NCBI GenBank assembly: GCA_050259635.1
Contig: JBLNBA010000001.1
Location: forward strand, 7,329-71,328
Source: Bacillota bacterium
GTDB lineage: Bacteria; Patescibacteriota; Patescibacteriia; Patescibacteriales; UBA12465
Direction of reading: 5' to 3'
Length of the DNA: 64,000 nucleotides
In this document: positions 3,723 through 61,769 of the stretch, in pieces
Position numbering within the stretch: position 1 is the stretch's first letter
Layout of the letters: each line of letters begins with the position of its first letter
Notes under the pieces: generated by a model
What the model saw: the letters and a program-made list of their open reading frames with translations, nothing else
Database searches by the model: none
What the model was told of the DNA's origin: nothing
Translations under genes and position numbers: made by a program

Positions 3723-4751
3723 ATGAAAATCTCGCTGCTCGTACCATGTTTCAATGAAGAGCGCTCTATCGAAGCGACCATCCGTTCCTGCCTCAACCAG
3801 ACACGGAAGTTTGACGAAATCATTTTCATTGATGACAGCTCCACCGACGATACCCCGAATATCCTTAAACGTTATGCGCGAAAGGGAGTGAAAAGCTATA
3901 AAACTCCTCATAATACCGGCAATAAAAGCAGCGCGCAAGAATTCGGCTTAAATTTCCTAACTGGGGACATTATGGTAACGACCGATGCAGATACTTTGCT
4001 TGACCCGCGCTTCGTTGAAGAGATCGAAAAAAGCTTCCGCAACCCGGGGATATTCGCCGTCGCCGGTTACGTTAAAAGCCTTCCCTATAACTGGCTCACG
4101 CTCTGCCGCGCCTTCGATTATGTCATCGGCCAGGATTTCCATAAGCTCGCCCAAGCACACTTGAACTATATCTTTGTCATGCCCGGGGCAGCCAGTGCTT
4201 TTAGAGTGAAAATGTTCCGACGTTATATTACTTTCGACCATGATACGATCACCGAAGATTTGGATTTCACCTATATGCTGCATCGCCGGAATCTGCGTAT
4301 CGAATACAACACCAAGGCGATTACCTACACCCAGGATCCGGCAACGCTTAGCAACTACATCAACCAGATGCGCCGCTGGTATGACGGGGGCTGGCAGAAC
4401 CTCCGGAAGCACTACCGCATCATGAAGAACCCGGTCCGCGCCCTTGAGCTATCTTTGATCTATATCGAAGGCATGGTCTTTTCCGTCCTGATCTTTCTCA
4501 TTCCTCTCCTCAATTTCTGGTTTGCCTTGATGTTTATATTTTCCTCTCTCATCATCACCCTGCTATACGGCATCTGGGCGGCCTGGAGACAACGCCGCCC
4601 CTTGCTTCTACTCGCCCCCTTCCCTTATGTAATCATAGTATTTATAAATTCCGCCCTTTATTTGGAGACATTTACCAAAGAAATATTGCTTCGGAGACGG
4701 AACCTTAAATGGTTCAAGCCCGAGCGGGTAAATATTGAAATTAAACAATGA
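3723..4751 (+). CDS. membrane-embedded family 2 glycosyltransferase, processive synthase type (IcaA/PgaC/NodC-like)
   Basis: LVPCFNEE, DDSSTDDT, TDADT (DxD) and QMRRW (QxxRW) motifs, followed by C-terminal hydrophobic helices. Confidence 0.8.
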   Translation: MKISLLVPCFNEERSIEATIRSCLNQTRKFDEIIFIDDSSTDDTPNILKRYARKGVKSYKTPHNTGNKSSAQEFGLNFLTGDIMVTTDADTLLDPRFVEEIEKSFRNPGIFAVAGYVKSLPYNWLTLCRAFDYVIGQDFHKLAQAHLNYIFVMPGAASAFRVKMFRRYITFDHDTITEDLDFTYMLHRRNLRIEYNTKAITYTQDPATLSNYINQMRRWYDGGWQNLRKHYRIMKNPVRALELSLIYIEGMVFSVLIFLIPLLNFWFALMFIFSSLIITLLYGIWAAWRQRRPLLLLAPFPYVIIVFINSALYLETFTKEILLRRRNLKWFKPERVNIEIKQ

Positions 4752-5447: not shown

Positions 5448-8400
5448 ATGAAACAAAAAAAGTTTTTACAACTTGTATCGAAAGCCAGCCTCTTTGCACT
5501 TATGGGGGCGACAATACTAAGTTTCAACGCCGCATTGCCAGCCCAAGCCGCTGGGCCTAATTTAATAACCAACCCTTCCCTCGAGACTGCCGACGGAGCA
5601 AACCCCCAAGGCTGGCTCAATGGTTTTTTCCCGGCCGGCCTGCAAGCAAATTTCACCTACCCGGTTGAAGGTTCCACCGGTACAAGCAGCAAGGCGGCTA
5701 AAGTAGAGATTACCAGTTATCCGGGCGAAGGCGATGCAAAATGGTACTTCCAAGACGTAACGGTCCAACCCGAAACCTACTACGTGATTTCCGATAAATA
5801 TAAGTCCACGATTCCGAATAAAGTAATCGTGCGCTATAACCTTGGCAATAGCGTATATAACAACGTCACCTTAGAACAGCTCCCGGCAGCAGCAGACTGG
5901 ACAAACATGAGCCACGAGTTTTTGACACCGGCCGGAGTAATATCACTCACTATCTTCCATGTGATAGAAGGAGTGGGGACATTGACGGTAGACGACTATA
6001 ATCTAGCCACGAAAGATTCCCCCAATGTCTTCGACAATGGCATGTTTACTTTTACCTTCGATGATGGTTGGCAATCCGTCTATGACAATGCCCTTCCTAT
6101 CCTCGATGCTAAAGGATACAAGAGCACTCAATATATTATTACTGATGTCGTCCAAGATGAAAGGGTGGGTTCCTATATGACTTCGGCTGAAGTACTCGCC
6201 ATGATTAATTCCGGCCATGATATAGCCGACCATACCCGCACCCATACCAGCTTAGCCCTACCCCCCTTAAGCCCGGCAGAACTTGCTAAAGAAGTATCCG
6301 GTTCCCGCCTTGATCTTCTCACCCGCTTGAACGCGAAACCGGTGGACAGTTTAGCTTATACCTATGGGGATTATGATGAGGCCGCCAAAGCCGCCGTTCG
6401 GGATGCCGGTTTCATCGGAGCGCGCACGATCGACGAAGGATATAACGATAAAGCCTCAGACCGCTATGCCTTGAAGGCCATGTCTATCCTCAGGGGCGGA
6501 ATAGACGCGGATAATGGAAACGAAATCGCCACCACCACGATCGAAGAAGTGAGGGCTGCCATAGATAACGCCATTACCAACAAGGCTTGGCTCATATTCA
6601 CCCTTCACCAAATAGACAATATCGATAGCAACGTCTATGGCGCCACCCCCGAATTCCTCCAACAGATGGTGGACTACATCCAGCAAAAGCAAGGCTCCGT
6701 GAAGACCATGTCCGAAGCGCTGCATTTAATGCCTGGAACCCCGGTTAAAGATACTGTTCCGCCTATCCTAGCAACCACTACGGATATTAGCGTCCCAGCC
6801 ACTAGCGGATCGGGTGCAATCGTCTCTTTTTCTTCACCGGCTGTGACCGATAATATTGATACCAATCTTAAATCTTTCTGCTATACGGCTTCCGGCTTGG
6901 CTTCAAGCTCCACTTTCCCTATTGGTAATACAGAAATATCTTGCCGAGCGATGGATTCGAGCGGCAACCTCTCCAGCTTAGGAACTTTTAATGTCATCGT
7001 TATTGATCCGGCTGCGCCTGTCGTCACTTTAAACTCACCGGTAAGCCCCACTAAGCTGAGAGACTTTACCTATAATTTCTCCAGTAGCGACCCCTTAGCA
7101 GTGCTGACTTATAGCCTTGATGGCGCCGCTTACCAAACAGCAACCTCGACAGCCACATCAACGGCAACCTCAACCGTTACTGTCACCGGCCTACTGGAGG
7201 GAAATCATACCTTTAGCGTCCAGGCAACGGACTCCCAGAACCGAGTTGGTATGGCCACCAGCCGTTTCATCGTCGATCTCACGAAACCGGTAATCACCCT
7301 TAATGGCTCCGCCTCATCTACCTTAGCGGTCGGGGCCGGCTTTACCGATCCGGGAGCAAGCGTCTTAGATAACGTCGATGGCGTAATGACCGCCATCGTA
7401 AGCGGTGACACTGTAACCACCAGCACCCCGGCTGGGACGTATAAGATTTACTATGATGCGACCGACAGGGCTGGAAATGCAGCAGATCGCCTGACTCGCA
7501 CAGTTATAGTCGGCGATGGCGGCAGCGGAAATAATAATAACGGCCCCTCAGCCACGGATATCAGCGCCACCGCGATTACCATCCGCTGGAATTCGGCCGC
7601 CTCGTCCACCGGCGCAATTGTTTGGGATAAAGCCTCCCATACAACGGCCTCCAGCACAGCGGCAGGACCGGAAAAATACGGCTATCCCAACCTTACCAGC
7701 GGAGGCAGCAATCCCAGCATTGAACATTCGATAAAGATAGAGAATCTCGACCCTGACACCACTTATTATTTCCGTACGGTTACGATAGCGGGCACCTCTA
7801 CCCCCCTGCTTGGAAACGAGATCAGCGCCAAGACTTTACGCCGGCCTTCAGGCGGCGGCGGTTATATCCCCTCGACTCCGCCAACATATTATGGACAGGC
7901 CAACGGCTACATCGCCTGGAACGGAAATGTCGGGGGCAATGGCAATGGCCAGACGGATTATCTCGCAGAAGCCAGGATCATTTCCTTATATAATGGCGAC
8001 ATTACCCTGACGCCCGCCAACCAAGCTCTATATAACAGCCTGGTCGGTAATAGGGTGGTAACGGAAGGACAGCGTAAAGCTATATCTTATTTCATCCAAA
8101 ACGGCACCGACAGCAGCCGCAAACTCGGCTCCGGTGAGCGAGCCGGAGTGCTCGGTTCCTTCCTGAAAGCATTCGAACGACTCCCGCTCGATGAGCAAGA
8201 TTGGGAAGATGTCTTAAAGGTAGCTTCCGGACGCTGGACTAAAAAGATCAACCAGAAGGCAGAGCAAAACGCCCTTACGATCTTTTCCGTCATCTATAAG
8301 CGTAAGGCGAACCTGAGCGAAGTCCACGACCAGACGGCGGTCAAGCTCATTGCGTATGGCTTACGCCCGGGTAATCGCAATCTTAAAAGTGAGAAAGCTT

Positions 8401-13160: not shown

Positions 13161-13433
13161 ATGTCCCTCAGCGATACCTTTTCCGCTCTCGCCGATCCGA
13201 ACCGCCAAGCAATCCTTGATGCTCTAAGAAAAGAGGAGCTGCCGGTATCAGCCATTGCCGAAAATCTCAGCATTACCCTCCCTACGCTCTCCCATCACTT
13301 GGATATCCTCAAGCGTACAGGCCTGGTAAGTTCCAGGAGATCCGGCAGGCAGATATTCTATAGCCTGAACATGAGCGTTCTCGAAGAGATAAGCGAAGCG
13401 CTAATAAAATTCATCGGACCAAAAAAGAAATAA
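13161..13433 (+). CDS. ArsR/SmtB-family transcriptional regulator (SdpR-like)
   Basis: FSALADPNRQAILDAL...VSAIAENLSITLPTLSHHLDILKRTGLV is the ArsR winged-helix signature. Confidence 0.85.
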   Translation: MSLSDTFSALADPNRQAILDALRKEELPVSAIAENLSITLPTLSHHLDILKRTGLVSSRRSGRQIFYSLNMSVLEEISEALIKFIGPKKK

Positions 13434-20293: not shown

Positions 20294-20695
20294 ATGAAGA
20301 ATAAAGTCACAAAGTTCGCAATCACGGCCCTTGTCCTTGTATTCTCTTTTGCCCTTATTCAATCCGCTCTAGCCACCTCTACCCCCCAATCCATCGTAGA
20401 CAACACCACGAATGATTATAAATATGGAACTTATGACGTCAATGATGCGGTAATCTTTGTGATCCGCGCCTCACGTTGGGTTCTTGGACTCGTCGGTTCC
20501 CTCGCACTCCTGATGTTTGTCTACGGCGGCTTACTCTTCCTGATATCAGGCGGAAGCAGCGACCAAGTAGGTAAAGCCAAGAAAGTAATCATAGCGGCTG
20601 TCATCGGGCTGGCGATCGTTTTTGCAAGCTATCTGATAATCCAATACGTCCTGTCGATTTTAGGAATAAGCTGGGACGGAAAAATCCCCGCATGA
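20294..20695 (+). CDS. TrbC/VirB2-like pilin-family small membrane protein (paralog 0)
   Basis: Signal-like N-terminus, then LLMFVYGGLLFLISGGSSDQVGKAKKVIIAAVIGLAIVFASYLI. This is the same two-helix module as the 25303-27811 array. Confidence 0.65.
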   Translation: MKNKVTKFAITALVLVFSFALIQSALATSTPQSIVDNTTNDYKYGTYDVNDAVIFVIRASRWVLGLVGSLALLMFVYGGLLFLISGGSSDQVGKAKKVIIAAVIGLAIVFASYLIIQYVLSILGISWDGKIPA

Positions 20696-21351
20696 ATAGT
20701 TTTACCTTCAAAAAGCTCATAACACCCGATCACGCCGGCGAGAAGCTCCGCCATGCAAGAGAGGCCAAGAAAGCAACTTTAGAGGATGCCGCCGCCGTTC
20801 TCCATATCCGGGCGGATTATCTCGAAGCCCTTGAGAATGAAGAATACGACCGCTTACCCTCAGGATTATATGGACGCCAATTTTTTAAAGAATATTGTCA
20901 ACTGCTTAAACTAGACTATCGCAAACTTGTCCGACTCACTCCCTATTCCAAAGAAAAAGAAGGCGCTGACCCCTTTTCCCAAAAAGTATTGCGTCGGCAT
21001 AAATTCCTGGTATTCCCGAAACTGTTCCGAAATGCGCTCTTCATCGGCTTATTTTGTATCTGTCTGCTTTATCTGCTGATATATTTCCGCCGTTTGGCAT
21101 CCGCTCCCGAACTTATCGTAGACTATCCGCCAAGCAACATGGTAACGCACGAACTTTCAATTGAGATCCGCGGGCAAAGCGACCCGGAAACAGAAGTGAA
21201 GATCAATAACACCAGTATCATGAGCACGCAGGACGGTTCTTTCAGCCATGAGGTCCGCCTAAAACGCGGTTTAAACGACATTACGATCAGCGCGCAAAAG
21301 AAATACGGCCGGGAAAGCGTCATTGAACGCCAGATCCTAGTCGAGGAATAA
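20692..21351 (+). CDS. helix-turn-helix membrane protein, RodZ-like
   Basis: N-terminal HTH (LRHAREAKKATLEDAAAVLHIRADYLEALENEEYDRLP), one TM segment, and a C-terminal beta-rich domain. Confidence 0.55.
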   Translation: MNSFTFKKLITPDHAGEKLRHAREAKKATLEDAAAVLHIRADYLEALENEEYDRLPSGLYGRQFFKEYCQLLKLDYRKLVRLTPYSKEKEGADPFSQKVLRRHKFLVFPKLFRNALFIGLFCICLLYLLIYFRRLASAPELIVDYPPSNMVTHELSIEIRGQSDPETEVKINNTSIMSTQDGSFSHEVRLKRGLNDITISAQKKYGRESVIERQILVEE

Positions 21352-25782: not shown

Positions 25783-26190
25783 ATGAATAATATGAAAATA
25801 CATACACTTCGCCGCCTAGCGGCCTGCTTGATATTAACCAGCGCCTTGTTAGCCGGTTTTTTTATACCCACATCATCCTGGGCACAAACCGAGAACAATT
25901 ACGGCTTAGATGACAGCGCCGAAAAGGTAGGGGCCTACCAAGCGCAGATCAATAGCTCGGATAACTTCCTTACGACCAAGGTGGGAAGTATAATAGGGAT
26001 AGTCCTTTCCTTCGTCGGTGTTATTTTCCTTGTACTTATTATTTATGCCGGACTTAATTGGATGACCGCTTCCGGTAATGCAGATAAGGTTGGCAAGTCT
26101 AAGGATATGATGATTAACGCCGTTATCGGCCTTATCATCGTCCTGGCCGCCTACGCCATAACCGCCTTCGTCGGGGATCGCTTGCTCTAG
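25783..26190 (+). CDS. TrbC/VirB2-like pilin-family protein (paralog 2)
   Basis: Signal segment ends ..SSWAQ. Core is FVGVIFLVLIIYAGLNWMTASGNADKVGKSKDMMINAVIGLIIVLAAYAITAFV. Confidence 0.7.
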   Translation: MNNMKIHTLRRLAACLILTSALLAGFFIPTSSWAQTENNYGLDDSAEKVGAYQAQINSSDNFLTTKVGSIIGIVLSFVGVIFLVLIIYAGLNWMTASGNADKVGKSKDMMINAVIGLIIVLAAYAITAFVGDRLL

Positions 26191-26943: not shown

Positions 26944-27378
26944 ATGAAAACTAGAGCTATCAAGCCAATATTTACCTTCCTCCTACTGACCGCCGTTATG
27001 ATCCTGCCCTATTTCGTCTTTGCCCAGACAACGACGGGTGGGACGATTAATACCGGGTCTCAAGCAAACCCCATCCAGATGCTGGAAAATGTAGCTACCG
27101 GCCAATCCGGACAGGGCGGGCCCTATCAGGCCGCTGATGAAAGTACTCTTCCCCAAATTGTGGGCCTAATCGTTAACGCCGCCCTCGGCTTGCTTGGCAT
27201 CATCTTTATCATCCTCATCATCTATGCGGGCTATCTCTGGATGGCCGCATCCGGGAACCAAGCAGCTGTCGATAAGGCAAAAAAAATCATCACCAGTTCA
27301 ATCATCGGGCTAGTCATCGTTCTAAGCTCCTGGTCCATCTGGGTATTCGTGCTGCAGAATTTGATTTCTAAGTTCTAA
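26944..27378 (+). CDS. TrbC/VirB2-like pilin-family protein (paralog 5)
   Basis: Signal segment ends ..FVFAQ. Core is LLGIIFIILIIYAGYLWMAASGNQAAVDKAKKIITSSIIGLVIVLSSWSIWVFV. Confidence 0.7.
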   Translation: MKTRAIKPIFTFLLLTAVMILPYFVFAQTTTGGTINTGSQANPIQMLENVATGQSGQGGPYQAADESTLPQIVGLIVNAALGLLGIIFIILIIYAGYLWMAASGNQAAVDKAKKIITSSIIGLVIVLSSWSIWVFVLQNLISKF

Positions 27379-27382
27379 CTTT

Positions 27383-27811
27383 ATGAAGAAAATATTTGTG
27401 CCGATCTTCCTCGCCCTCTTTCTTTTTCTGGCCGGCACCAACGTCCAAGCCCAAACAAGCACCGATTTGATAGACACGATAGCCGGACCGGCGGATGCAA
27501 TGCGCTCCACAACCGGTCTAGCCGAATTTACTATTGGTAGCCTGATCGCCTTGATAATCAAGGTCGCGCTTGGCCTACTGGGCGTGATCTTCATCATCTT
27601 GATCATTTTCTCCGGCTACCGCTGGATGACCGCCTCCGGCAATGAAGAAGCAGTTAATAAGTCGAAGAAGACCATCCAAATGGCAATCATTGGTCTGGTT
27701 ATCGTCTTGGCTGCTTATTCCATAACCTACTTCGTGTTTGAAAGACTGCCCTTCGGAGGAATTGGGGCATCTCCTTCGTCCGGCAACCTGCAAGGAAGCG
27801 GTACGGATTAA
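27383..27811 (+). CDS. TrbC/VirB2-like pilin-family protein (paralog 6)
   Basis: Signal segment ends ..NVQAQ. Core is LLGVIFIILIIFSGYRWMTASGNEEAVNKSKKTIQMAIIGLVIVLAAYSITYFV, with a G/S-rich C-terminal tail. Confidence 0.7.
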   Translation: MKKIFVPIFLALFLFLAGTNVQAQTSTDLIDTIAGPADAMRSTTGLAEFTIGSLIALIIKVALGLLGVIFIILIIFSGYRWMTASGNEEAVNKSKKTIQMAIIGLVIVLAAYSITYFVFERLPFGGIGASPSSGNLQGSGTD

Positions 27812-38822: not shown

Positions 38823-39755
38823 TCAAGCTTGCTTCGCACTCTCAACATCTTGAATGTGCTGGTAAGCCGCCAAAGCGGCAATTGTGGCCTGCCCCATCGC
38901 TATTGTTATCTGCTTGTACTGACTGTGGACAACATCTCCGGCCGCAAATAAACCAGGCGTCCTCGTTTCCATATTTTCATTGACCAGAATCTGTGCCTGT
39001 TGGTCACGATCCACAAACTCGCATAGGATATCGGTGCTGGCTATCCTGCCAATTTCCACAAAGATACCTTCAAGGGGCAATTCAATTTCATTTTGCTTTT
39101 CATCCCGATAAACAAGCCCCTCGACCTTCTGAGCACCTTTGATAAGGACGGTATCTGCATTAACTAAAATCTTTATATTAGGACGAGATTCTACTTCTTT
39201 AACTAAGGCGTCAAATGCCTTGAATTTATCACCTCGGACGACCAGATATACTTGAGAGGCAATCTTAGACATGACCTCAGCAGCGTCAAAAGCTGAATTT
39301 CCAGCACCGACAACGGCTACGGTTTTCCCTTTATACAAAGGCCCATCGCAATTTGCACAATATGACACCCCCCTACCGGTAAGCTCAACTTCACCAGGAA
39401 CAGTCAATCTCCTTGGAGCCAGCCCTAAAGTGGCAATCACGGTTTTGGTTTCGTACACTACTCCGCCCGCTAGTACCTCAAAGATCCCGTCAGTGCGTTT
39501 GGTTATCTTAGTGACTTCACTATTTTTAATCTCTACTCCGGACTTTAGGGCATGCTCATTAAAGCGGCTGATCAGATCAAAGTTACTTATGCTGGTAAAC
39601 CCGGGATAATTCTCGATTTCGCTTGCCCAAATGATTTGCCCTCCTGGCTCTTTACCGATGATTAGGGTTTTCATTTCCCGCCTAACGGCATAAATAGCCG
39701 CTGTAATACCAGCTGGTCCTTGTCCAATAACGATAGTGTCGTACATAATGTTCAT
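38823..39755 (-). CDS. trxB: thioredoxin-disulfide reductase
   Basis: IGQGPAGITAAIYA FAD motif, redox-active CANCDG, VVGAGNSAFDAA NADPH motif and C-terminal FAAGDV. Confidence 0.9.
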   Translation of the reverse strand: MNIMYDTIVIGQGPAGITAAIYAVRREMKTLIIGKEPGGQIIWASEIENYPGFTSISNFDLISRFNEHALKSGVEIKNSEVTKITKRTDGIFEVLAGGVVYETKTVIATLGLAPRRLTVPGEVELTGRGVSYCANCDGPLYKGKTVAVVGAGNSAFDAAEVMSKIASQVYLVVRGDKFKAFDALVKEVESRPNIKILVNADTVLIKGAQKVEGLVYRDEKQNEIELPLEGIFVEIGRIASTDILCEFVDRDQQAQILVNENMETRTPGLFAAGDVVHSQYKQITIAMGQATIAALAAYQHIQDVESAKQA

Positions 39756-39852
39756 GATAAGTAATAGTAGTATTATTATAAATCCTTATTCGTTTTTTGG
39801 CAAAGAAATGTAGAATTACATTATATTTATTTAATATTAGCACATTATTGAT

Positions 39853-39868
39853 TGTTCTTTGTGGAACA
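39853..39868. repeat. TGTTC-N6-GAACA palindrome, copy 1
   Basis: tgttctttgtggaaca, about 100 bp upstream of the trxB start. Confidence 0.8.
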
Positions 39869-39891
39869 TCGTCAATCTCACGCTACGTTTA

Positions 39892-39915
39892 GTTTTGTTC
39901 TCCGTAGAACAAAAC
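39892..39915. repeat. TGTTC-N6-GAACA palindrome, copy 2 (extended 9-bp arms)
   Basis: gttttgttc-tccgta-gaacaaaac. Confidence 0.8.
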
Positions 39916-40001
39916 TCTATCGGATATTAATTCGGTAGCAACGCGGCCACGCTAACATTCTTTGGCCATTTTCAATTACTTTCTCGCCTTCTGCTATTAC
40001 C

Positions 40002-40017
40002 TGTTCTTCGTGGAACA
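40002..40017. repeat. TGTTC-N6-GAACA palindrome, copy 3
   Basis: tgttcttcgtggaaca. Confidence 0.8.
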
Positions 40018-40111
40018 AATTGATTCGGCAAACATGTTAACAATAAATATAATCGTCGAAGAGATTTACTCACTCTATTTGAATCAATTTCTGATATCAG
40101 ATAAATTGTAA

Positions 40112-40129
40112 TTGTTCCATACGGAACAA
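40112..40129. repeat. TGTTC-N6-GAACA palindrome, copy 4 (7-bp arms)
   Basis: ttgttcc-atac-ggaacaa. Confidence 0.8.
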
Positions 40130-40242
40130 GATTCAAATGTCGCTAAATCGATTTACAACTTGATCACAAGTTTCAAGATCGGTTTATTAAGCATTATTAT
40201 ATGGCACACAAGAGTATAATTGCAGAATGATACTGCTCTTAA

Positions 40243-40265
40243 CAAAAAAGACTCCGAAGAGTCTT
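40243..40265 (-). terminator. intrinsic terminator of the tRNA-Arg/tRNA-Ala transcription unit
   Basis: aagactc-cgaa-gagtctt hairpin. On the minus strand it is followed by a U-run (the A-run at 40243-40249). Confidence 0.6.
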
Positions 40266-40268
40266 ATT

Positions 40269-40345
40269 TGGTGGACCATAAGGGACTTGAACCCTTGACC
40301 TCTTCCATGCCATGGAAGCGCTCTAGCCAACTGAGCTAATGGCCC
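40269..40345 (-). tRNA. tRNA-Ala (anticodon GGC), CCA encoded
   Basis: Reverse complement GGGCCATTAGCTCAGTTGGCTAGAGCGCTTCCATGGCATGGAAG...GGTTCAAGTCCCTTATGGTCCACCA. G3:U70 pair is present. Confidence 0.9.
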
Positions 40346-40349
40346 GTAA

Positions 40350-40365
40350 TGTTCTATGAAGAACA
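40350..40365. repeat. TGTTC-N6-GAACA palindrome, copy 5 (between two tRNA genes)
   Basis: tgttctatgaagaaca, 5 nt from the 5' end of tRNA-Ala. Confidence 0.75.
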
Positions 40366-40404
40366 ATAATATATTTTACTAAAATTGTCAATAGTATATA
40401 GGAG

Positions 40405-40476
40405 TGCCCTCGCCAGGAATCGGACCTGGATCTAGAACTTAGGAGATTCTCGTTCTATCCATTGAACTACAAGGGC
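40405..40476 (-). tRNA. tRNA-Arg (anticodon CCT) with atypical T-loop TCCGATT
   Basis: Reverse complement GCCCTTGTAGTTCAATGGATAGAACGAGAATCTCCTAAGTTCTAGATCCAGGTCCGATTCCTGGCGAGGGCA. Anticodon loop CTCCTAA. Confidence 0.85.
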
Positions 40477-40649
40477 GAGGTCAAAAATATCATAACTGAT
40501 TATATTACTTTTTACAATAGTATTTTTTATTAAGTGTTTTATATAACATTAAATAATTTTTTTGACACTATCCCCTTAGTATACTAAAATGTAAATGATG
40601 AAAGCAATATAAATCATAGCCCGAATCAGGGAGGCGGGCCCTTAAATTT

Positions 40650-41051
40650 ATGTTCAGTAAAGACAACAAAATCGAAAAATTAAAAGATGCGGAGACCATA
40701 ATCGGCGCCTCAATCCGCGTAAAAGGGAACTTTAATGGTAAGGGCGACATTGTTATCGAAGGATTCTTAGAGGGATCCTTAAAGACTGAGGCGAATGTTT
40801 ACATTGGAGAAAAAGCTCGCGTCAATGCCAATGTGGAAGCAACCGAGGCCTTAATCAGTGGAGAAATTAGCGGCAACATCAAGGCCCGTAAATATTTAGC
40901 AATCGGTAAGACCGCTAAAATTGCCGGCGATGTTCATTGTGGTGAAATTTCAATCGAGCGGGGCGCTTCCATCACCGGTCAAATTATTGTTTCCAGTGCC
41001 GACACCAGAAAAACCGAGGCTCGAAAAGCCAGCGACGAAGTCGAGGAGTAA
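40650..41051 (+). CDS. bactofilin-family polymer-forming cytoskeletal protein
   Basis: IIGASIRVKGNFNGKGDIVIEGFLEGSLKTEANVYIGEKARVNANVEA...ISGEISGNIKA is the bactofilin (DUF583) beta-helix repeat pattern. Confidence 0.8.
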   Translation: MFSKDNKIEKLKDAETIIGASIRVKGNFNGKGDIVIEGFLEGSLKTEANVYIGEKARVNANVEATEALISGEISGNIKARKYLAIGKTAKIAGDVHCGEISIERGASITGQIIVSSADTRKTEARKASDEVEE

Positions 41052-43512: not shown

Positions 43513-44916
43513 GTGCTTATGAACAACGACCAAATCTGGCAAGCGGCCCTTGGAGAATTAGAAATAAATCTCTCAAGGGTTAATTTCGTTACCTGGTTCA
43601 AGGACACTTATCTGTCCTCTTTTGAAAATGGCCGAGCGATTATTTGCGTACCCAATGCTTTTGTTAAGAAGTGGCTTGAAGAAAAATACCATAAGAACAT
43701 TGTTTCTTCGCTTGAAAATATTTCGAAGCAAAAACTACAGGAAATAATTTACAAAATTGAACTTCGCCACGCCGGCCCGCATGAACTCGCTCCTTCGGTC
43801 ATGAGCATTAAACAGCCAGAAACAGTAATTACAGACGCTAGACAAGAAGCCTCCCGTTCATCTTCGTCCGGACAGCCGGCTAATCGCTTTGGTCTTAATC
43901 CGAAATATGTTTTCGAAAATTTCATAGTAGGCCGAGGCAACGAACTTGCTCACGCTGCTTGCCGTGCGGTTGTAAATAATCTTGGGAAAGCCTATAATCC
44001 TCTTTTCATCTATGGCGGCGTTGGTTTAGGAAAAACGCATTTACTTCAAGCTATCGGTAATGAAGTCGCGAAACACACTGATAAAATTCTTTATGTTACC
44101 AGTGAAAAATTTACCAATAACTACATCCAGGCCGTACAAACAGGAAAGGCTAAAGACTTTAAAAATATCTATCGCAACGTCGACCTCTTATTAGTAGACG
44201 ATGTCCAGTTTATGGGCGGGAAAGACGGGACTCAAGAAGAATTCTTCCACACTTTCAACGAACTACAGCAGGGCGATAAGCAAATCGTAATGACCTCCGA
44301 TCGTCCGCCGAAGTCTATCCCTGCCATAGAAAAACGTCTTATCTCCCGCTTCGAATCAGGCATGGTGGCCGATGTGGGTAAGCCCGATATGGAAACTAAG
44401 ATCGCGATTCTCGAGAAGAAGTCCTTAGAGAAAGGCTTTCCTTTAGATAAGGATGTTCTAATATACATCGCAAATAATGTACAGAATAACATCAGAGAAC
44501 TTGAAGGGGCTCTTAATAAGGTAATCGTAATCCACCAGCTAAACAACTCCGTCCCGACATTAAAAAGTGTTAGGAACGCCTTAAGCGACTATGTTTCAAG
44601 CCTCCAGGCTAAGTCGCTTACTGCCAAAGAAATCATCGAGGCTGTCTCTCGATTTTACGAAATCAGCCACAAAGATATAGTCGGTACCAGCCGACGGAAA
44701 GAGCTTGTGGGTCCAAGACAGATTGCCATTTATCTTATTAGGGAAGAATTAAATTCATCTTATCCTAGCATCGGCCAGGAAATTGGAGGGCGCGATCACA
44801 CGACTGCTATGCATGCTTATAATAAGATCTTGGGTGAATTGAAAGAAAATGATAATGAACGTTTAAAGCAAGAGATAGAATCAATCAAACAGTTATACGC
44901 CAACCCACTCTATTGA
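43513..44916 (+). CDS. dnaA: chromosomal replication initiator protein DnaA
   Basis: WQAALGELE..., Walker A GGVGLGKTHLLQAIGN, LLVDDVQF, sensor regions, and C-terminal DNA-binding SYPSIGQEIGGRDHTTAMHAYNKI. Start is GTG 43513 or ATG 43519. Confidence 0.92.
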   Translation: MLMNNDQIWQAALGELEINLSRVNFVTWFKDTYLSSFENGRAIICVPNAFVKKWLEEKYHKNIVSSLENISKQKLQEIIYKIELRHAGPHELAPSVMSIKQPETVITDARQEASRSSSSGQPANRFGLNPKYVFENFIVGRGNELAHAACRAVVNNLGKAYNPLFIYGGVGLGKTHLLQAIGNEVAKHTDKILYVTSEKFTNNYIQAVQTGKAKDFKNIYRNVDLLLVDDVQFMGGKDGTQEEFFHTFNELQQGDKQIVMTSDRPPKSIPAIEKRLISRFESGMVADVGKPDMETKIAILEKKSLEKGFPLDKDVLIYIANNVQNNIRELEGALNKVIVIHQLNNSVPTLKSVRNALSDYVSSLQAKSLTAKEIIEAVSRFYEISHKDIVGTSRRKELVGPRQIAIYLIREELNSSYPSIGQEIGGRDHTTAMHAYNKILGELKENDNERLKQEIESIKQLYANPLY

Positions 44917-45185
44917 TGTGTATATCCTGTGGTAAAACCCATTCCCTCCTGTTAATCACCTTGTGGGTAAGCGCGTGCCAATCAGTTGATAAACCAAAGA
45001 TCCTCAAAGAGGTGGATAATAATCCACTTCCAATTCCCGGTAAAGCACCGTTAATCAATAAGGGTAATCACAGCTATTTTTATTTAATATCAGATAAACA
45101 TTTAATGATTTTGAACTTGTCCACTCCGCTTATTATTATTGTTTATTAAATATTATAAATATATATATATTAATACTAATAATAT
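44917..45185. other. candidate oriC: DnaA-box-like sites plus an AT-rich unwinding element in the dnaA-dnaN spacer
   Basis: TGTGGGTAA (44962-44970) and GGTGGATAA (45011-45019) abut TAATCCACT (45020-45028) as an inverted pair. Also TGTGGTAAA (44928-44936) and TTGTCCACT (45117-45125). Positions 45131-45185 are almost pure A/T. Confidence 0.6.
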
Positions 45186-60429: not shown

Positions 60430-61122
60430 ATGGATACGAAGCGAGTATTGGAACTAAAAGATAAAGTCCGTGAGTCATACCGTCTATCGGCTAAGCATTT
60501 TACCGCTACGCGCAAGAAAGGATTAGCCGATGATTTTTTGTGGGCAGCAGGCCAGATTGGCGAAAATGATAGAATCCTGGATGCGGGTTGCGGTAGCGGT
60601 CGTTTACTGGAAGCCGTCGAAATTGGACCGGAACGATACGTGGGGATAGACGGGAGTGAGCTTCTCTTGGGCTATGCCCGTGAGATTTATCCGGGCTACC
60701 GTTTTGAGCAGGGTGAGCTGGAAGACCTTGAGATAAAGGACGAGTTTGATTGCATCTTTTGCTCGGCGGTAATTTCCCATATCCCGGGCAGAGAAAATCG
60801 CACTCTTGTATTAAAAGCGTTTCTTAACGCCGCTAAAGACGGTGGCAAGCTTGTGATCAGCGTTTGGAAATTTCGTGGGAAATATCGTCGTCTGTTACAT
60901 CTTGCCAGGATTAAGAGCTTATTGGGCTTAAACCCATATGGATGGAATGAGATCGTTTTCGATTGGAAGAGCGATGATGGACGTCCTTTAGCAAAGCGGT
61001 ACTATCACTATTTCAGCAAGCGCGCTTTCTTGAGGGAGATAGCTGCTTCCGGTTGGCTAGTTAAGGAACTCCATGATAGCGCATATAATTACTGGGCCGT
61101 TGCGGAAAAAAAAGAATCTTGA
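60430..61122 (+). CDS. class I SAM-dependent methyltransferase
   Basis: ILDAGCGSGRLL (motif I) and FDCIFCSAVISHI. Start moved to the ATG at 60430, 1 nt after the recQ stop. Confidence 0.7.
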   Translation: MDTKRVLELKDKVRESYRLSAKHFTATRKKGLADDFLWAAGQIGENDRILDAGCGSGRLLEAVEIGPERYVGIDGSELLLGYAREIYPGYRFEQGELEDLEIKDEFDCIFCSAVISHIPGRENRTLVLKAFLNAAKDGGKLVISVWKFRGKYRRLLHLARIKSLLGLNPYGWNEIVFDWKSDDGRPLAKRYYHYFSKRAFLREIAASGWLVKELHDSAYNYWAVAEKKES

Positions 61123-61148
61123 CACCCCCCGGGGGTGTATTGTATAAT
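61119..61148 (+). promoter_or_regulatory. promoter TTGACA-18-TATAAT with an embedded C/G-tract palindrome (probable CsoR-family operator)
   Basis: TTGACA at 61119-61124, palindrome ACACCCCCCGGGGGTGT at 61122-61138, TATAAT at 61143-61148. The ATG at 61155 is 6 nt after the -10, so the mRNA is probably leaderless. Confidence 0.6.
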
Positions 61149-61154
61149 ATAGCC

Positions 61155-61400
61155 ATGAAAACCGCCGAACAGAGGATTAATAATATAATCGGGCAGCTTG
61201 AAGGCATTAAGAAAATGCTCAAGGAATCGCCAAATGATTGTTTTCCTTTACTCATGCAAATGAAGGCGGTTAAATCTGCCATTTCTTCTTTGACGGAACA
61301 GATCCTATCTACGGAGTTGGATCGTTGCCTTAACGGGAAGATGTCTTCTGAAAAGCGTGATAAGATGGCCGGGTTATTGAAAGAAGTAATTAAGAAATAA
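61155..61400 (+). CDS. CsoR/RcnR/CstR-family (DUF156) metal- or thiol-sensing transcriptional repressor
   Basis: AEQRINNIIGQLEGIKKMLKESPNDCFPLLMQMKAVKSAISSLTEQILSTELDRCL aligns to the CsoR helix bundle. Cys, Glu and Cys sit at the C-H-C positions. Confidence 0.75.
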   Translation: MKTAEQRINNIIGQLEGIKKMLKESPNDCFPLLMQMKAVKSAISSLTEQILSTELDRCLNGKMSSEKRDKMAGLLKEVIKK

Positions 61401-61439
61401 TTATAACAATGCCCTTAGGAGAAATGGCATTATAATAAT

Positions 61440-61769
61440 ATGAGTAAAGCGATTGAGTTGACCAAAGATGATTTTGAAGAGCAGGTTATGAAAAGCGAGG
61501 TGCCGGTATTGGTAGATTTCTGGGCTCCTTGGTGCATGCCTTGCCGGATGATGGCTCCGATTCTGGACGAGCTCTCCGGAGAATTAGAAGGGAAGGTTAA
61601 GATTTCCAAGCTAGATACAGAAAATCCCGAGAACCAGGAATTGGCCATGAAATATGAGATCCAAAGCATCCCGAATATGAAGCTGTTTAAAGGAGGACAG
61701 GTCGTCGAGGAATTTATCGGTCTCCGCAGCAAAGATGATCTGAAGGCAAGTTTAGAAAAATACGTTTAA
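61440..61769 (+). CDS. trxA: thioredoxin (active site WCMPC)
   Basis: VLVDFWAPWCMPCRMMAPILDEL...IQSIPNMKLFKGGQVV. Confidence 0.88.
   Translation: MSKAIELTKDDFEEQVMKSEVPVLVDFWAPWCMPCRMMAPILDELSGELEGKVKISKLDTENPENQELAMKYEIQSIPNMKLFKGGQVVEEFIGLRSKDDLKASLEKYV

Follow-up and report, generated by a model that had tools for sequence, protein, structure and literature searches.

An array of 16-bp palindromes resembling relaxed parS sites in the trxB-bactofilin intergenic region of a Patescibacteria genome and its relatives

What recognises five palindromes that share one sequence pattern and lie together in a gap devoid of credible protein-coding genes, a few kilobases from the predicted replication origin? 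The question is raised by a 64-kb stretch of contig JBLNBA010000001.1 (assembly GCA_050259635.1), called here the window, in which an 894-bp gap between trxB and a bactofilin gene carries five copies of TGTTC-N6-GAACA. An earlier note on this DNA had proposed three explanations, namely a divergent parS-like cluster near the origin, an operator array, and RNA hairpins. As judged from its sequence, the array repeats a 16-bp, dyad-symmetric putative protein-binding site that derives from parS by a relaxation of the sequence. The feature is genuine, under strong selection and clade-specific, and it is set apart from canonical parS. We assign a probability of about one half to the reading that ParB-family dimers with changed specificity bind these parS-derived sites as a centromere-like array; which protein binds, and a role in segregation, are the conjectural parts of this answer.

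The five exact matches to TGTTC-N6-GAACA in the window compare with 0.03 expected from dinucleotide-preserving shuffles. They are site 1, TGTTCTTTGTGGAACA (39853..39868), site 2, TGTTCTCCGTAGAACA (39896..39911), site 3, TGTTCTTCGTGGAACA (40002..40017), site 4, TGTTCCATACGGAACA (40113..40128, with 7-nt arms), and site 5, TGTTCTATGAAGAACA (40350..40365), none of them being assigned a strand. Successive sites are 43, 106, 111 and 237 bp apart, exactly as the earlier note had given positions and spacings; two of its smaller measurements had to be corrected, since site 2 is a perfect inverted repeat with arms of 11 nt (39891-39901 and 39906-39916) and not of 9, and site 5 ends 4 and not 5 nt upstream of the mature 5' end of tRNA-Ala(GGC). 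The impression that the motif is missing from the remainder of the window was right, with no other exact or one-mismatch copy found there, and copies with two mismatches occur in the window at chance level (27 seen, 22 expected). On the other hand, the view that only the 5-bp arms matter and that the six bases between them are free was mistaken: all five sites have a pyrimidine (Y) at positions 6 and 8 and a purine (R) at positions 9 and 11. The refined motif, TGTTCYNYRNRGAACA, is expected only about 0.004 times per 64 kb, and further copies were found neither in the rest of the window nor in the 10 kb to its right. Helical phasing of neighbouring sites is not significant (Rayleigh p ~0.12 at 10.5 bp).

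Conservation of the motif was analysed in 80 related loci recovered by a metagenome scan with TrxB (58-73% identity, Falkowbacteria/Patescibacteria). Nearly all of them have the DAGK-like and bactofilin genes on one strand and, on the opposite strand, tRNA-Arg(CCT), tRNA-Ala(GGC), trxB, a DUF6938 glycosyltransferase-like gene and EamA. The window and these loci together contain 132 sites, 122 of them distinct, every one of which lies inside a bactofilin-trxB intergenic region (114 kb in total) with none in 911 kb of flanking sequence, and every one of which forms a 16-bp dyad with TGTT...AACA ends that fits TGTTCYNYRNRGAACA; a single outlier that matches in the arms alone breaks the rule. Most loci have a palindrome in this region, and the number of copies per locus ranges from 0 to 11 (11 in L126, 6 in L122 and 5 in L128). 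The two nearest relatives, reached through the DAGK-like protein, are L203 (GCA_030696105.1) with 8 copies and L205 (HGW-Falkowbacteria-2) with 6, both syntenic with the window. The intervening sequence in these two cannot be aligned to the window, and the tRNAs and the 16-mers alone survive. Since the flanks are unalignable even in the nearest relatives, each 16-mer must have been kept by selection and stands out as a phylogenetic footprint. The check that the earlier note had suggested, a search for the motif in related genomes, shows it kept across the clade at one intergenic region. More distant orthologous loci were not reached through the DAGK-like protein, whose best 120 matches all fall within the clade. 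In the distant Patescibacteria relative L089, whose bactofilin shows 42% identity, the palindromes remain beside the bactofilin and tRNA genes, and a thioredoxin gene, not trxB, lies downstream. The motif therefore tracks the bactofilin/tRNA-Arg/tRNA-Ala locus and not strictly trxB or dnaA.

The logo of the 122 distinct sites gives C or T only at positions 6 and 8, A or G only at positions 9 and 11, T > G > A at position 7 and A > T > C at position 10, between flanks of symmetric A/T composition; the clade consensus is TGTTCYTYRARGAACA. Dyad symmetry thus extends across the central positions, a pattern to be expected where a protein dimer contacts duplex DNA. The same data bear on the proposal that the palindromes are RNA or single-stranded DNA hairpins, which in the precursor of tRNA-Ala and in a long leader of trxB would offer a platform for processing or for protein binding. 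Each site can indeed form a stem of 5-7 bp (11 bp at site 2), and in many relatives transcription from the predicted promoter would pass through the tRNA-Ala-adjacent site, which is downstream of it. Yet the arms are invariant in the 122 distinct sites, with no compensatory changes, and the 6/11 pair is non-Watson-Crick in 43 of them, as T..G in 26 and C..A in 17; as both occur on the same strand, there is no strand-specific wobble. Moreover, the supposed loop, positions 7-10, is itself dyad-symmetric (T7/A10, Y8/R9), the symmetric A/T flanks include no downstream U-run, and Rfam finds only tRNAs in the window and in five relatives. Sites 1-4, placed between a terminator and the best trxB promoter match, are probably not transcribed. 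Processing would also be expected to suffer from a stable hairpin 3-4 nt away from where RNase P cleaves. The hairpin proposal of the earlier note is accordingly disfavoured, and we consider it very improbable.

The outer part of the motif points to a known family of sites. In Pseudomonas and Myxococcus, TGTTCCACGTGGAACA has been established as the chromosomal parS (PMC7022226 Table 1; PMC5450999). It fits the relaxed class TGTTCYNYRNRGAACA itself, its outer-arm bases are identical to those of the window sites, and sites 1-4 are the only sequences in the 64 kb within three mismatches of it. Site 3 agrees with it at 14 of 16 positions and includes one perfect canonical half-site, TGTTCCAC. The parS-like character of this copy had been recognised before, with a figure of 12 of 16 positions that becomes 14 against the Pseudomonas-type parS. 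The right half of site 1, GTGGAACA, is likewise a perfect canonical half-site (TGTTCCAC on the minus strand), one half of site 2, TGTTCTAC, is the canonical half-site with a C6T transition, and relatives have TGTTCTACGTAGAACA, a form that differs from canonical parS by symmetric transitions at positions 6 and 11. Half-sites of parS, GTTCCAC for example, are bound by ParB in some species (PMC7022226). Sites of the Pseudomonas/Myxococcus/Bdellovibrio type are perfect 16-bp dyads whose outer five arm bases are the same as here and, similarly to the array, they occur near oriC in groups of a few to about 20 and are rare elsewhere (PMC7022226, PMC5450999). Unlike them, the array is degenerate at positions 6-11, with transitions at 6, 8, 9 and 11 and mostly T/A instead of A/T at 7/10; it is without nearby parAB, all its copies are intergenic, and one is tied to the 5' flank of tRNA-Ala.

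Precedents exist for new 16-bp palindromic targets of ParB-family proteins that arose through changes at inner positions, namely the Noc-binding site (NBS) and the Burkholderiales Bsr parS. Positions 2 and 7 are reported by Jalal et al. 2020 as those at which NBS departs from parS. Both NBS and Bsr are fixed new sequences, Bsr keeping the central CG, whereas the inner positions of the array are constrained only as to purine or pyrimidine; NBS sites are also spread over the chromosome, in contrast to the clustered array. Changes tolerated at drifted ParB-family sites are mostly transitions (PMC5450999). The searched literature contained nothing on TGTTC-N6-GAACA or on non-canonical parS.

One genome per species (185,579 species) was scanned for two TGTTC-N6-GAACA sites 10-40 bp apart, which yielded at least 120 loci. 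Among the matches listed, the paired sites are TGTTCCACGTGGAACA in 89 of 120 loci, and parA or parB lies within the 8-kb locus in 45 of these 89. Four loci (L005, L015, L019 and L100, three of them from Acidobacteriota) have clusters of TGTTCC-N4-GGAACA with non-canonical centres beside parA or parAB, so divergence of the centre next to par genes does occur in nature. Their TGTTCC...GGAACA arms are as in the array, and L005 and L019 also have T7/A10 and clusters of five copies; unlike the array, L005, L019 and L100 break the Y-R rule at positions 8-9, and the clusters adjoin parA or parAB. The Acidobacteriota clusters (L005:683-1089, L019:3745-4125 and L100:4442-4576) are located directly upstream of parA, with centres TGCA, TTCA, TGAA, AATC and others. 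They may be variant parS sites or operators of the par operon, and no description of them was found in the searched literature. The idea of a difference in the ParB recognition helix between variant and canonical centres in Acidobacteriota was dropped, no clear correlate being seen. The TGTTCTACGTAGAACA variant is also paired in a Goldiibacteriota genome, between a RecF-like gene and a possible rsmG-like gene (identities assigned by eye).

The position of the array within the chromosome was examined as well. The gene order is rpmH-rnpA-yidD-yidC on the minus strand followed by dnaA-dnaN on the plus strand, dnaA starting at 43513. The cumulative GC skew falls to about 39 kb, forms a plateau up to about 45 kb that includes its minimum (43-45 kb), and then rises. 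In the dnaA-dnaN spacer (44917..45185, no strand) there are seven DnaA-box-like 9-mers with at most two mismatches, TGTGGGTAA, GGTGGATAA, TAATCCACT and TTGTCCACT among them, followed by an AT-rich tract just before dnaN; this combination makes the spacer the likely oriC. The array region contains two such 9-mers against the seven of the spacer, and perfect TTWTNCACA is present neither there nor in the rpmH-dnaA spacer. The array was therefore rejected as oriC of the window, the better DnaA-box cluster being in the dnaA-dnaN spacer. It lies 4.6-5.3 kb from the predicted oriC, on the plateau of the GC-skew minimum. A 78-residue open reading frame (ORF) at 44913-45149, within this part of the window, has no Pfam or NCBIfam match and is probably spurious.

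If the array is indeed a parS derivative, a dimeric helix-turn-helix (HTH) protein would bind each dyad, most likely the ParB of this lineage or a ParB-derived paralogue whose base specificity has altered at positions 6-11. The occupied cluster would nucleate a nucleoprotein complex about 5 kb from oriC, and this complex could mark the origin region for segregation and chromosome organisation through the loading or anchoring of SMC. As a side effect, occupancy beside tRNA-Ala and upstream of trxB may dampen local transcription.

Several observations weigh against this reading. Each of the five sites departs from TGTTCCACGTGGAACA at 2-4 of positions 6-11 and nowhere else, and neither the CACGTG core nor canonical parS occurs in about 1.03 Mb of clade sequence. 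One canonical chromosomal ParB, scanned position by position, tolerated changes only at positions 1/16 and 5/12 (PMC5450999). Most relatives have one to three sites. Many relatives have no dnaA within 5-8 kb of the array, so that proximity to the origin is demonstrated for the subclade of the window only. The sites also lie near the tRNA-Ala and trxB promoters and are all intergenic, which would suit a transcription factor. Furthermore, Pfam detected neither ParA nor ParB among the 62 ORFs of the window to which it was applied, neither was seen among the genes predicted in the next 10 kb on its right, and neither turned up in 81 related loci (about 1 Mb) searched by tblastn and custom hidden Markov models (HMMs). 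The HMMs were built from 38 ParB and 44 ParA sequences; the tblastn probes were Spo0J/Soj sequences, and they recovered ParA/ParB in 45-47 control loci. This absence is itself weak evidence, as shown by two other Patescibacteria loci from the genome scan, L024 and L027, whose arrays of 6-8 perfect TGTTCCACGTGGAACA copies are also without ParB within 8 kb. Nothing linking ParB or parS to Patescibacteria, candidate phyla radiation (CPR), Saccharibacteria or Parcubacteria was found in the searched literature. The array thus lacks the canonical core and is not counted as canonical parS, a conclusion to which the failure to find ParB also leads. The first proposal in the earlier note, a divergent parS-like cluster near the origin, is the best supported of its three: the identity of the arms with those of parS and the proximity to oriC hold up, whereas the canonical core is absent and no ParB was found.

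The two perfect arrays just mentioned have a peculiarity of their own. The copies of TGTTCCACGTGGAACA at L024:6877-7758 (Moraniibacteriota UBA11098) and L027:7008-7813 (a Parcubacteria metagenome-assembled genome, MAG) lie inside one long ORF, which by eye resembles an O-antigen-ligase-type membrane protein. In frame, they encode inserts of FHVEQ, CSTWN or VPRGT; it is odd to find a centromere array within a coding gene.

A rival explanation is an operator array for a dimeric transcription factor outside the ParB family, which would control the tRNA-Ala(GGC) promoter and possibly trxB, and we hold it to be a possible, though rather doubtful, explanation. Under it, the site downstream of the tRNA-Ala promoter would be a roadblock or a promoter-occluding operator and the trxB sites would be auxiliary or looping sites. 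It has to be judged on the features of the gap, all on the minus strand apart from the array itself. The gap is bounded on the left by trxB (38823..39755, minus strand; thioredoxin-disulfide reductase, Pyr_redox_2, TIGR01292-like) and on the right by the bactofilin gene (40650..41051, plus strand). The tRNA-Ala(GGC) gene (40269-40345) and tRNA-Arg(CCT) (40404-40476) are together the conserved anchor of the locus, and a terminator-like hairpin after tRNA-Ala (40248-40265) separates site 5 from sites 1-4, so that four copies do lie between the tRNA terminator and the start of trxB, in the context described by the earlier note. A promoter-like site for tRNA-Ala is found at 40363..40391 (TTGACA, 17 nt, TATTGT), its -10-like hexamer being overlapped by site 5 and its -35 hexamer TTGACA recurring among relatives. 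The one for trxB is at 39775..39803 (TTGCCA, 17 nt, TATAAT), with a similar element in relatives (TTTGCttt...cTTTATAAT); sites 1-4 are all upstream of it, the centre of site 1 being about 106 nt 5' of the trxB ATG. Between the trxB-proximal palindrome and this promoter lies a conserved block, GCTAATATTA (39832..39841), the core 9-mer of which, GCTAATATT, is found in 40 of 63 distinct relatives.

The arrangement in relatives favours an operator in several respects. In about 35 of the 63 distinct relatives, and in both nearest ones, a site follows the -10 element of tRNA-Ala and precedes the 5' end of the mature tRNA, a further point that speaks against a centromere; the promoter there is TTGACA-N17-TATAAT-like, and the gap between palindrome and tRNA is 3-22 nt, or 3-4 nt in the subclade of the window. 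A second recurrent position is 126-152 nt upstream of the trxB ATG, upstream of both the conserved trxB promoter and the GCTAATATTA block. The exclusively intergenic location of the 132 sites and the low copy number in most relatives suit an operator too, the 6-N4-6 geometry is common to other known repressor boxes, and the window encodes HTH proteins of ArsR type (13161-13433), HTH_25 type (20692-21351) and CsoR-like type (61119-61400). The promoter register, however, is not kept, as anything between 0 and about 35 nt may separate the palindrome from the -10 element, and trxB-proximal sites are at least 55 bp upstream of the -35 element. No regulator or HTH gene belongs to the conserved neighbourhood (DAGK-like, bactofilin, trxB, DUF6938 glycosyltransferase-like and EamA genes), arrays of 6-11 sites over 0.8 kb without helical phasing would be unusual for a local operator, the palindromes of L089 accompany the bactofilin/tRNA locus although trxB is not adjacent, and the identity of the arms with those of parS would be a coincidence. 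Neither the fixed register nor the adjacent regulator gene of a local repressor operator was thus found, and the varying register, the lack of a linked regulator and the 6-11 unphased sites argue for a position-tolerant architectural site in scarce non-coding DNA instead of a classical operator. The operator array suggested in the earlier note consequently fares well as to the location of a site between the tRNA-Ala promoter and the tRNA in most relatives, and poorly as to register and linked regulator. Concerning the CsoR-like gene, which encodes a metal-sensing repressor, it is directly upstream of a thioredoxin gene in the window (61119-61769), and what appears to be the same pair (CsoR-like by eye) takes the place of trxB beside the tRNA/palindrome locus in L089 (L089:6527-7254).

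The surroundings of the origin suggest another candidate, an origin-region regulator whose sites would couple replication initiation or origin organisation to the cell cycle. Analogues are the CtrA sites in the Caulobacter origin and the Spo0A boxes in the Bacillus origin. The array does lie on the GC-skew plateau about 5 kb from the DnaA-box cluster, and in distant relatives a perfect DnaA box, TGTGGAAAA, accompanies the palindromes in the same intergenic region, together with further conserved blocks. Against this, the array region of the window has no perfect DnaA box of its own, its DnaA-box cluster and AT-rich tract lie at 4.6 kb, a distance too great for unwinding to be controlled directly, and no candidate response regulator was found nearby; we regard this explanation as unlikely. 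The DnaA box TGTGGAAAA is 13-fold enriched in the intergenic region upstream of trxB in relatives. L154, L136, L164 and about 40 further loci have a conserved module 100-250 nt upstream of trxB which, upstream of the trxB promoter, consists of GATAAGTCTACA...TGTAGACTTATC, then TTGGCTAATATTAAATAAATA, then the perfect DnaA box. The window retains just the GCTAATATTA block of this module, which may be a DnaA-regulated promoter or, where dnaA is elsewhere, an origin element.

The persistent linkage of bactofilin, tRNAs and palindromes where trxB and dnaA are not adjacent raises a further scenario, in which canonical ParABS has disappeared from the clade and the array serves another system as its centromere, with a non-ParB or strongly remodelled ParB-like protein tethering the origin to a scaffold formed by the always adjacent bactofilin. 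Bactofilins of Myxococcus organise ParB-parS complexes (PMC5703909). Such tethering would provide ParA-independent anchoring and segregation in ultra-small cells. We judge this scenario improbable, on a par with the origin-region regulator.

Known repressor boxes and other identities were considered in addition. The Verrucomicrobia LexA box TGTTC-N4-GAACA has 5-bp arms identical to those of the array (PMC4951493); its spacer is of 4 bp, accepts any substitution, and the box is found singly or in tandem at SOS promoters, whereas the spacer of the array is of 6 bp and Y/R-constrained. The Patescibacteria LexA motif is cited among direct-repeat motifs (PMC7739468). A LexA box was rejected on account of the 6-bp spacer with its Y/R constraints and the absence of an adjacent SOS gene. 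The Rex operator is TTGTGAA-N4-TTCACAA, with a clostridial variant TTGTTAA-N4-TTAACAA. It has in common with the array the 6/7-N4-6/7 geometry, the TTGTT start and the association with redox genes, but half-site bases 5-7 differ and single-locus arrays of up to 11 copies are not Rex-like; a Rex box was rejected on sequence, and no Rex gene was found in the window. Paired sites were absent from 2.9 million viral contigs, which makes an origin from a mobile element unlikely, and this candidate was set aside. A coding function was also rejected: ORFs within the array are of at most 59 residues and not conserved, relatives giving matches only for those that overlap trxB, tRNA-Ala or bactofilin. 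Rfam detects the two tRNAs in the window and nothing else, and together with the ORF comparison this bears out the earlier description of the gap as holding two tRNA genes and no credible ORF.

Should the array be the centromere of the clade, as the parS-derived reading has it, it would show that four inner positions of a near-invariant chromosomal parS can loosen until only purine or pyrimidine is specified. This would imply a ParB that reads the bases differently, offering a natural case for the evolution of ParB/Noc-type specificity, and the sites would serve as a marker of the origin region in Falkowbacteria MAGs, in a radiation where chromosome segregation is essentially unstudied. If a transcription factor binds instead, the palindromes would be among the first defined regulatory motifs in the group, controlling a tRNA gene.

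Some features of related loci concern the tRNA-Ala gene. In L135, L147, L163 and L075 a partial, insertion-bearing copy of its 5' part (gggccattagctcatccgccagctggcggaggctagagcgc...) precedes the intact tRNA; a palindrome sits upstream of this duplicate, so that palindrome and tRNA 5' end seem to have been duplicated together. In L154 (~4040-4500) and L136 (~1730-2200) tRNA-Ala is followed by a GC-rich segment of about 400-500 nt that looks structured, the spacers being otherwise AT-rich; it has no Rfam match at the gathering threshold and is absent from the window.

As to taxonomy, the closest named homologues of TrxB and of the DAGK-like protein belong to Candidatus Falkowbacteria and to MAGs labelled 'Patescibacteria group'. 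The 100%-identical NCBI proteins of the window (P0001, P0121) are labelled 'Bacillota bacterium', their close relatives being all Falkowbacteria/Patescibacteria, and L075 is labelled Gammaproteobacteria yet belongs to the clade; both labels are probably taxonomic mislabels or the result of misbinning. In L017, a MAG labelled Bdellovibrionales, the site 1 sequence occurs in both orientations 38 bp apart (TGTTCCACAAAGAACA ... TGTTCTTTGTGGAACA; 5593-5646), and a tRNA-Ala(GGC)/tRNA-Arg(CCT) pair is about 2 kb from the two sites. Either a further lineage with this system or a misbinned contig could account for the finding.

Elsewhere in the window, there are several paralogous T4SS_pilin (PF18895) genes (20294-20695, 25783-26190, 26944-27378 and 27383-27811), at least five when the one just to its right (L202:11876-12310) is included. 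Several T4SS-pilin paralogues are typical of CPR genomes, and those seen here suit such a genome. The region at 22.3-23.6 kb of the window encodes a membrane protein of 460 residues.

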